From Stylophora pistillata (taxonomy: Eukaryota), in contig NW_019217794.1 of assembly GCF_002571385.2 (NCBI RefSeq), positions 1,220,977 to 1,284,976 on the forward strand: a stretch of DNA of 64,000 nucleotides, given 5' to 3'. A program made the translations under genes and the position numbers. Positions 2,457-4,390 of the stretch are shown here, piece by piece (within the stretch, counting starts at the first letter, position 1; every line of letters starts with the position of its first letter). The notes beneath the pieces are model-generated. The model made no database searches and was not told where the DNA came from. It was given only the letters and a program-made list of their open reading frames with translations.

Positions 2457-2557
2457 AACAGAATTTGGTAAAGTGGGTTATTGTTATTACCCGTACCTGG
2501 TCAAAATAAGTTGTGTAGAAAAGTGCCTATAAAAGGCAGCATTGTTGTCAATGACAA

Positions 2558-4177
2558 TGTGTGGTTCCAGAAAATATCCAAACCCCCCCTGCAGAAGAGA
2601 TTGGATTTTCCAGGGGGAGGGGGTCAATTTGCCTAATTTTCCAAGGGGGAGGAGGGTGACCATAGGGAAATATTTCCAGAGGGTTCTTGTGGCACATGAG
2701 AGTGACAAAGAAAAAACACAAAAATTTACCATGACAATTTATTTGCAAAGATATAAAATATGAACGATTAGTGACCTGCTTGAAAATTATGTAAAAACAT
2801 CAATTTTATGTTCAGTCAACCTCTTTTATCCTTCAAAGCACGAGTGACTTATGACCTACATAAAACTCATTTAAAAACATCAAATTTATGTTCAGTTAAC
2901 CTCTTAAATATCCTTCAAAGCACAAGCGATTAATGAAATACTTGAAACTCATTTAAAAGCATCAAATTTTATGTTCAGTTAACCTCTTATATGTCAAAAC
3001 TTTGAACACAGAGAATTATACTTGTCATAAATCAAGAGCAATCAAGACCTTACGTGCCAGTTGGGCTTCCAAGACCGACAGGTGAATAGTACCTTCGAGT
3101 GTTAGCAGTAGCGGAGTGGATATCTGACCTTTTAACAAGATAATGAATAAGGATCTCTTCAGGCAAAATCTTATTTTATTATGCAATAACCGTGGCAATT
3201 TTTGGCAATATTGCATCACAGCGGAACAGTTGGAATGCAATCATGGGAATCTGACTTCATGGAATATCCAGGAGACGAATTTCTTGACGTGTTTCATGTC
3301 ATCACAAGTTGATGAAACCGCTCCAACGAATTATCCCCGATTTATTTACATCACAGGCCTACGTTCCGGTTCGTACAAATGGCGATGGTAATTGTCTTTT
3401 CAACACCGCTTGTACTAGTTTAGCAATGTGGCATAGTGAACAACAGGCTACCAAGCTCAGGCTTCCCATGTGCATTGAACTTGCGCTTAACCGAGACTTT
3501 TACAAACAGCATCCAGTCGTTAATCAAGCACAAATTCCTTACCATTCAAGAAAACATGGGAATGGTCCTAGAATCAGCGACGAGCAATTTTACCACTAAC
3601 TCAAATATGCAAATTTGGTAGAACAAAATTCGATACTCGCACTGTCTGATCGCGCAACGAGGTCCTGGTCTCTTTGCTTTCTTCTTGACACAGTGAGAGA
3701 AAGTACAGTTATATGTCCTTTGCAATCTTACATTTCATTTGCAATCTTACATTTCATTTGCCTGTGGCCAAGAAACTTTGACAACGATTTCTTCGTGAAT
3801 TGAGTGCATAAGGAACTCGCTGATCTGTTGTAGAATTCAACAGAAAAGCTGAAAATACATGAAACTCAAAATTTGTTTGTGACTCGAGCCCATCAGGAAT
3901 TCGCATGAGGAATTTGCTTTACCTGTTATAGAATTCGACAAAAAATACATGAAACTCACAAAATTTGGCATCCTAGTGAAAAAACTACTTACCTGTTCCC
4001 TTCAATAAGAGATAGCAATAATTATTTCCAGGGGGTGTGCAAAATTTTTGGAAATTTTGGGAAATTTTGGAGGGGAGGGGGGTATTTTGGGGCAAATTTT
4101 GCAAAATCCAGAGGGGAGGGGGGTCATACAGCAAATCCCTTCCATGGGGGGATATGGATATTTTCTGGAACCACACA
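2558..4177 (+). mobile_element. Non-autonomous TIR DNA transposon (1620 bp) carrying a vertnin-like OTU relic
   Basis: Perfect 23-bp TIR TGTGTGGTTCCAGAAAATATCCA (2558-2580 / 4155-4177). Flanking duplication ATGACAA (2551-2557, 4178-4184). Internal ~80-bp repeats at ~2770-2990. Confidence 0.85.
3308..3599 (+). pseudogene. Vertnin-like OTU cysteine protease fragment (frameshifted, truncated)
   Basis: VDETA/(frameshift)QRIIPDLFTSQAYVPVRTNGDGNCLFNTA...KLRLPMCIELALNRDFYKQHP. Contains the OTU GDGNC catalytic loop and the vertnin-type LR...EL...FY helix. Confidence 0.7.
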
Positions 4178-4390
4178 ATGACAAAAAGCATGACTTATCA
4201 TTCATATTTCTCAGCTGAGAAGACAATTTTGCAGGGCTGTGGTCTAACAGTGCCTGATGGCCCCTGATGCGTTACATTTGCTCTTGGGCAACTCAGGAAT
4301 CTTAGTTTTTTCATAAAAAGCATATGCTGGACACCCTGGATTTGCACAGCCTCACTTTTGTGATAAAACTAGAGTGTACCAAATTCTTAC

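Follow-up and report, generated by a model that had tools for sequence, protein, structure and literature searches.

A non-autonomous copy of a likely Zator-superfamily transposon in Stylophora pistillata and its protease-transposase relatives

The 64,000-nt window analysed here (the whole stretch taken from contig NW_019217794.1 of Stylophora pistillata) carries at positions 2559-4176 a 1,618-bp element. With a probability of about 0.85, we read it as a cut-and-paste transposon, likely of the Zator superfamily, that has become non-autonomous through an internal deletion. Its complete relatives code for a polyprotein composed, from the N-terminus, of a predicted OTU deubiquitinase and a linker, then a DD43E transposase core, a pair of SAP domains and a Tudor-like tail. 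Coral metagenomes are among the sequencing runs in which the stretch occurs, in keeping with a coral host.

Boundaries and target site of the element

The element starts with GTG and ends with CAC. Inverted-repeat comparison placed its terminal inverted repeats (TIRs; family type GTGTGGTTCC) at 2559-2580 on the plus strand and at 4155-4176 on the minus strand. They match at 22 positions out of 22 when counted from 2559 and 4176, and at 23 out of 23 from 2558 and 4177, i.e. with the flanking T/A included, which is the perfect 23-bp repeat described in the first-pass annotation. Further in, the pairing continues imperfectly for some 10-20 bases. The 20-nt core of the TIR was found twice in the window, for 0.02 matches expected by chance.

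A DNA search of the coral's own genome (G000) with the element gave 89 matches, and 40 of 85 candidates were scored. In this genome-wide check of TIR pairs, the length of the target site duplication (TSD) came out at 3 bp, the duplication being exact in 24 of 29 paired copies (15/20 in a first set and 9/9 in a further one). Its sequence in the family is AAT or ATT (AWT), and one or the other precedes 61 of 67 distinct TIR ends. For the window copy, the census sets the TSD at AAT, at 2556-2558 and 4177-4179. The element, initially placed at 2551-4184, is therefore confirmed as real, with narrower limits. Two parses of its duplication had been proposed and both are present at the window copy: the 3-bp AAT with GTG..CAC ends is retained, and the 7-bp ATGACAA with TGT..ACA ends is ruled out by the census. 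A 7-bp duplication was seen in one of 20 paired copies, that of the window, where it appears because the insertion occurred in a short AATGAC repeat; moreover, one copy is flanked by CAT on both sides, which breaks the TGT..ACA parse. No empty site was found among the matches listed from the contigs of eight sequencing runs.

The rejected parse was the one that made a Ginger-like element conceivable, since the window copy, taken alone, does read as TGT..ACA with a 7-bp TSD and since Ginger1 is reported to carry OTU or Ulp1 proteases (PMC2836005). According to the same source, however, the Ginger TSD is 4 bp and the Ginger1 OTU is C-terminal. TGT termini, a 4-bp TSD and a Gypsy-like integrase were not found here, and the DDE motifs of the relatives match Zator (see below), so that we regard a Ginger-like origin as extremely improbable.

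Directly to the left of the element lies a MITE-like repeat (2043-2457, ends CAGGGCTTGAAA..TTTCAAGCCCTG), and 4233-4343 is a very high-copy short repeat, starting with CAGGG, the summed contig depth of which is at least 10-fold above that of the element ends. Three segments, at 5621-5806 and 4352-4627 on the minus strand and at 7955-8140 on the plus strand, are presumably exon-like pieces of RRM-domain RNA-binding genes; the element sits just downstream of the second minus-strand piece (4352-4627), and no further exon was recognised in 1-2560. At 412-460, two head-to-head tRNA-like or SINE-like starts form a 22-bp perfect palindrome.

A truncated and frameshifted OTU-transposase frame

Protein matching located the remains of a reading frame on the plus strand. 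Its 5' part (3143-3323, with an ATG at 3143) corresponds to residues 1 to ~61 of P0001, a relative of 927 aa which itself stops before the second Asp of the transposase. It is followed by an OTU fragment (3324-3566) corresponding to residues 61-139. Identity to the P0001 OTU is 78% over 67 aa (residues 1-67) and 86% over 81 aa (residues 61-139); against P0186, the nearest complete relative, 46 of 81 aa are identical (57%). The two frames join near 3323, where one extra base is present relative to a contig of sequencing run X9. The GDGNC motif lies at 3381-3395, with the catalytic Cys codon (Cys84) at 3393-3395, which bears out the frameshifted internal OTU reported at first pass; on the window fragment alone, the Pfam OTU match is weak (E 0.11).

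The OTU of the window copy ends at about residue 140, and the half containing the catalytic His (residue 250 in P0001) is lost. Comparison with siblings and with the relatives' proteins puts the internal deletion junction at 3566-3569; what followed, from the remainder of the OTU through the DDE core to the SAP and Tudor-like domains, is gone. As had been noted, no transposase is visible: comparison with the stored transposase proteins found none inside the element, and the right arm (3569-4176) gave no match. The window copy is thus dead, through frameshift and deletion of the catalytic His and of the transposase, and would yield at most a short inactive peptide. Coverage of the element in RNA runs is not to be equated with transcription.

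Complete relatives encode a single polyprotein

Used as a protein query, the window fragment retrieved four proteins among 28 candidates. A search with P0001 against 1.84 billion representatives gave 1,186 matches at E<=0.001, the best 150 of which were listed. The OTU had been taken for an accessory frame; it proved instead to be the N-terminal domain of the transposase frame, OTU and downstream DDE core occurring together in 17 of 200 stored proteins, some of them near-copies of one another. Complete members are single ORFs of 1,416-2,346 aa, in which the linker after the OTU is of low complexity; the two SAP domains on the C-terminal side were detected by Pfam with E-values down to 1e-9, the Tudor-like tail with an E-value of 0.18 only. 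In five full-length proteins (P0186, P0188, P0161, P0164 and P0006), both protease motifs (Cys and His) are intact, as are all three acidic residues of the transposase. In the few source names returned, the relatives are annotated as 'hypothetical protein'. What remains in the window is thus the start, ~140 codons long, of a large single ORF which is complete in the relatives.

The transposase core is likely of Zator type

The AlphaFold model of the DDE core (pLDDT 78) has the RNase H-like fold of the IS630-Tc1-mariner group. With Foldseek, the top seven rows were all Mos1 (best E 1.4e-4); with VIA-align, the matches were Metnase (Z 10.7, rmsd 3.3, 169 residues aligned) and Mos1 (Z 10.1, rmsd 3.7, 169 residues), the integrases being tied with them. 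The acidic residues are carried by a strand (147-154), the segment after a strand (277-282) and a helix (327-338).

The core was compared by eye, and unscored, with positions 12-63 and 140-190 of the Zator HMM consensus given in the supplement of PMC5751038. Over 140-190, P0186 aligns to it gaplessly with 17 of 51 residues identical, and the first-Asp motif likewise agrees by eye. The spacing between the second Asp and the Glu is 43 in that consensus and in 19 of the 20 proteins having both motifs (DD43E). Library scans of the relatives were nearly silent: no Pfam DDE domain was matched, that of PIF/Harbinger being absent from the 49 members scanned, and the NCBIfam ISAzo13 model matched one of the 49 (E 0.067). 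A search of G000 with PF07592 and a PDB sequence search with the DDE profile returned nothing, and tblastn against plasmids only noise. The near-silence of the library scans is in line with PMC5751038, where Zator is described as having no Pfam similarity. The superfamily is TP36-related and placed in the ITm group by PMC7386202.

A Mos1/integrase-like fold combined with a gapless match to the Zator profile indicates a Zator-like element, not a PIF/Harbinger one, and the transposase core of the relatives is likely of Zator type; the parent, left at first pass as unclassified or of the PIF/Harbinger group, is to be reassigned accordingly. As reportedly described by Bao et al. in 2009, Zator has a TWA TSD and 5'-GG termini. 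The elements studied here share with it the DDE motifs and DD43E spacing (gapless, by eye), the Mos1-like fold, a 3-bp TSD and short TIRs starting with G. They differ by their polyprotein with N-terminal protease, SAP and Tudor-like domains, by an AWT instead of a TWA duplication, and by GTG ends in the window family as against GG (the second family, below, has GGG). Three curated bivalve Zator families are presented in PMC10294476 and may include this clade.

A family of deletion derivatives

Seven siblings of the window element were aligned, six of 1.53-1.62 kb and one grown to 7.2 kb through insertions. They match element positions 1-345 and ~1011-1618 (83-91% identity), differ in the middle and have no OTU segment. 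In the window, the common left arm spans 2559-2903 (plus strand, 88-91% identity; one of the seven has a shorter version) and the common right arm 3569-4176 (plus strand, 83-86%). A repeat search also found three subterminal direct repeats of ~80 bp (family D1) at 2755-2987 on the plus strand. Two other copies, on contigs C496 and C48, begin at the left TIR and extend past the left arm as far as element position ~620, where the start codon region is reached. The copy on C1855 matches positions 868-1618, part of the OTU included, and has the same internal deletion junction as the window copy. With MITEs of 0.12-1.4 kb, only the TIRs are shared. Their divergence suggests that these deletion derivatives make up a family that is old and no longer active, and the initial description of the window copy as an internal-deletion derivative of a TIR DNA transposon holds, with an ORF cut at 3566 and siblings that keep the arms.

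These same siblings could suggest another history, in which a MITE of the window TIR family was joined, by nesting or template switching, to the 5' end of an unrelated OTU-Zator element: all seven (~1.55-kb type) have both arms without OTU, and the OTU sequence of the family is present in only two copies in G000. Yet the copies on C496 and C48 make left arm and ORF start contiguous in three copies, the junctions showed no additional TIR or TSD, and the siblings are accounted for if a single parent underwent several distinct internal deletions. We consider such a chimera very unlikely and keep the deletion-derivative reading.

Connecting the TIRs to the transposase

The most direct connection is the window element itself, where the TIR is joined to the start of the OTU-transposase ORF. 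A second connection comes from another family in G000 (L121-L144), made up of MITEs of ~315 bp with 73 TIR matches at one mismatch or less. Its TIR (GGGCCA, then TTCC, a C-run and GAAGG) is related to that of the window family, and its TSD is an exact 3 bp in 9 of 13 pairs, 7 of the 9 being AWT. On C359, the 210-bp end common to the MITEs of this second family lies ~490 bp beyond a decayed transposase of the Zator-like clade, which independently ties G-terminal TIRs and AWT duplications to a Zator-like transposase.

Protein searches of G000 gave no full-length parent of the window family; they gave decayed Zator-like transposases of other families on C156 (~555-560 kb), C359 (~228-233 kb) and C157 (~507-509 kb), the C156 and C359 remnants being 35-65% identical to P0001. 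No single DNA sequence with both window-family TIRs around a full ORF was found in G000 or among the matches listed from the contigs of the eight runs, and none of these listed matches had an OTU continuing past 3566. At unpaired TIR ends and within long TIR pairs, LINE or LTR pieces or gaps were met instead of a window-clade transposase. One metagenome contig (L092) was rejected as a TIR-bearing candidate: the likeness of its end was by eye, the TIR profile gave no score, there was no match in G000, and in an imperfectly framed control 7 of 10,418 windows were equally good.

One locus did bring another transposase close to a window-type TIR: in L071, an apparently intact 522-aa THAP-DDE ORF (6419-7985), which we take to be of ISL2EU type, lies 1.4 kb from such a TIR. 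It could speak for a parent in the PIF/Harbinger group (PHIS), with the OTU fragment as captured cargo. Pangu, an element of that group present in an anthozoan, has a 3-bp ANT TSD and TIRs starting with G or A (PMC4482050), which the AWT of the window family fits, a fit that we read as convergent. The TIR in L071, however, is part of a distinct MITE of 122 bp that has a TSD of its own, and ISL2EU was rejected as the parent on this ground. In addition, the relatives of the OTU fragment are fused to a Zator-like core, the other family with AWT duplications is linked to that transposase clade as well, and a PHIS element would pair an IS5-like DDE transposase with another ORF (Myb/SANT, YqaJ or unknown), whereas the relatives have a single one. 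A PHIS parent is accordingly highly improbable, and the Zator-like assignment is retained below.

The protease module and vertnin

The OTU model of the relatives (pLDDT 90) has VCPIP1, Cezanne and A20 as best matches. An OTU fold with catalytic Cys and His is found in the intact relatives, the window copy keeping the Cys only, and the domain of the former is predicted to be a deubiquitinase. Two variants were seen. On metagenome contig L094, an intact 1,993-aa ORF has the same transposase, but the OTU is replaced at the N-terminus by a domain whose His, Asp, Gln and Cys motifs stand in Ulp1 order; P0135 has VTD-like motifs. Pfam and PDB gave no matches for these two domains, and both labels follow the order of motifs, in patterns that we take to be those of Ulp1 and VTD. 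In a midpoint-rooted DDE tree restricted to the Zator-like clade (21 rows, five near-duplicates being left out of 26), the L094 protein is sister to the OTU group P0185/186/188/193 (support 100/99), inside the OTU-bearing set, and P0135 is on a long branch. It would seem that, within one transposase clade, proteases of different classes have been exchanged at a single position.

Vertnin (VRTN) is a vertebrate backbone gene. The vertnin protein begins with an OTU-like domain which, by eye, shares its helical extension and motifs with the OTU of the elements. By eye again, the published vertnin alignment (supplement 9 of PMC3024977) keeps 9 of the 11 most conserved columns of our OTU alignment, which was built without vertnin; the initial reading of the domain as vertnin-type is upheld at this level. 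It differs in that, in the alignment of PMC3024977, the catalytic Cys and His are absent and helix-turn-helix repeats stand at the C-terminus, after the OTU; no Zator-type DDE motifs were seen in the part of that alignment examined. PMC10318531 calls vertnin an inactive OTU homolog. Our OTU profile search scored 7,991 candidates and gave nine matches, with no vertnin among them.

Fusions of this OTU type to hAT transposases also occur, and in G000 the domain has hAT-like ORFs as neighbours on C689. In an OTU tree of 40 rows (no vertnin row), the Zator-linked and hAT-linked domains each cluster, with two changes needed, and P0001 groups with P0186. Such distributions argue that the vertnin-type OTU is a shared mobile module; that the Zator-like clade itself was the donor of VRTN is unlikely. 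At the C689 locus (L053/L056, ~103-109 kb), a vertnin-type OTU with both Cys and His is encoded by an intact frame of 311 aa, which lies upstream of a zinc-finger/hAT-like ORF and beside EnSpm-like ORFs; decayed relatives of this frame are found on C13 and C127. Another protein, P0097 (1,221 aa), combines three OTU domains with an LRAT-like one.

Discussion

That transposons can carry protease domains has been on record since 2010. Besides Ginger1, Helitrons may carry OTU or VTD (PMC9741609), and MuDR-6_HM is listed with an OTU in a table of PMC6446971. As in the elements described here, a DNA transposon is associated with a ubiquitin or SUMO protease, different classes occupying the same role. 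The differences are that those elements belong to other transposase superfamilies, that the OTU here is vertnin-type, and that the protease, C-terminal in Ginger1, is N-terminal in the Zator-like relatives. The pairing of an OTU protease with a Zator-type transposase was not found in print, nor were other protease-bearing Zator elements or a transposon origin of vertnin's OTU; Repbase or Dfam may catalogue the family.

The window copy would have moved in trans, the transposase of an intact parent acting on its TIRs, presumably through a cut-and-paste reaction of DDE type in which AWT is cut with a 3-bp stagger. Where the element is intact, the protease tethered to the transposase may strip ubiquitin (SUMO in the Ulp1-like variant) from the transposase or from nearby chromatin and so delay degradation or silencing, while the SAP and Tudor-like domains would bind DNA and chromatin. 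Countering of ubiquitin/SUMO control has been proposed for the Ginger1 and Helitron domains (PMC2836005, PMC9741609), and PMC9741609 describes the purpose of transposon OTUs as still untested. Since intact single-ORF members exist (P0186, P0188 and P0155), the role of the protease in transposition is testable.

On a wider view, for which we see about even chances, these elements would form a Zator clade that has not been described so far, found in marine invertebrates, targeting AWT and equipped with SAP and Tudor-like domains and an exchangeable N-terminal ubiquitin/SUMO protease (mostly OTU, but Ulp1-like in a single nested member and VTD-like in a remote one). Removal of ubiquitin-like marks during transposition would then be a conserved requirement, and the vertnin-type OTU of the clade, with its catalytic residues intact, would belong to the mobile pool that gave vertebrate VRTN.

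To conclude, two coral MITE families, with GTGTGG.. and GGGCCA.. ends, are classified, and relatives predicted to be catalytically intact are supplied for the dead domain of vertnin. The window locus itself is a fossil, marking a Zator-like clade with protease-transposase fusions.
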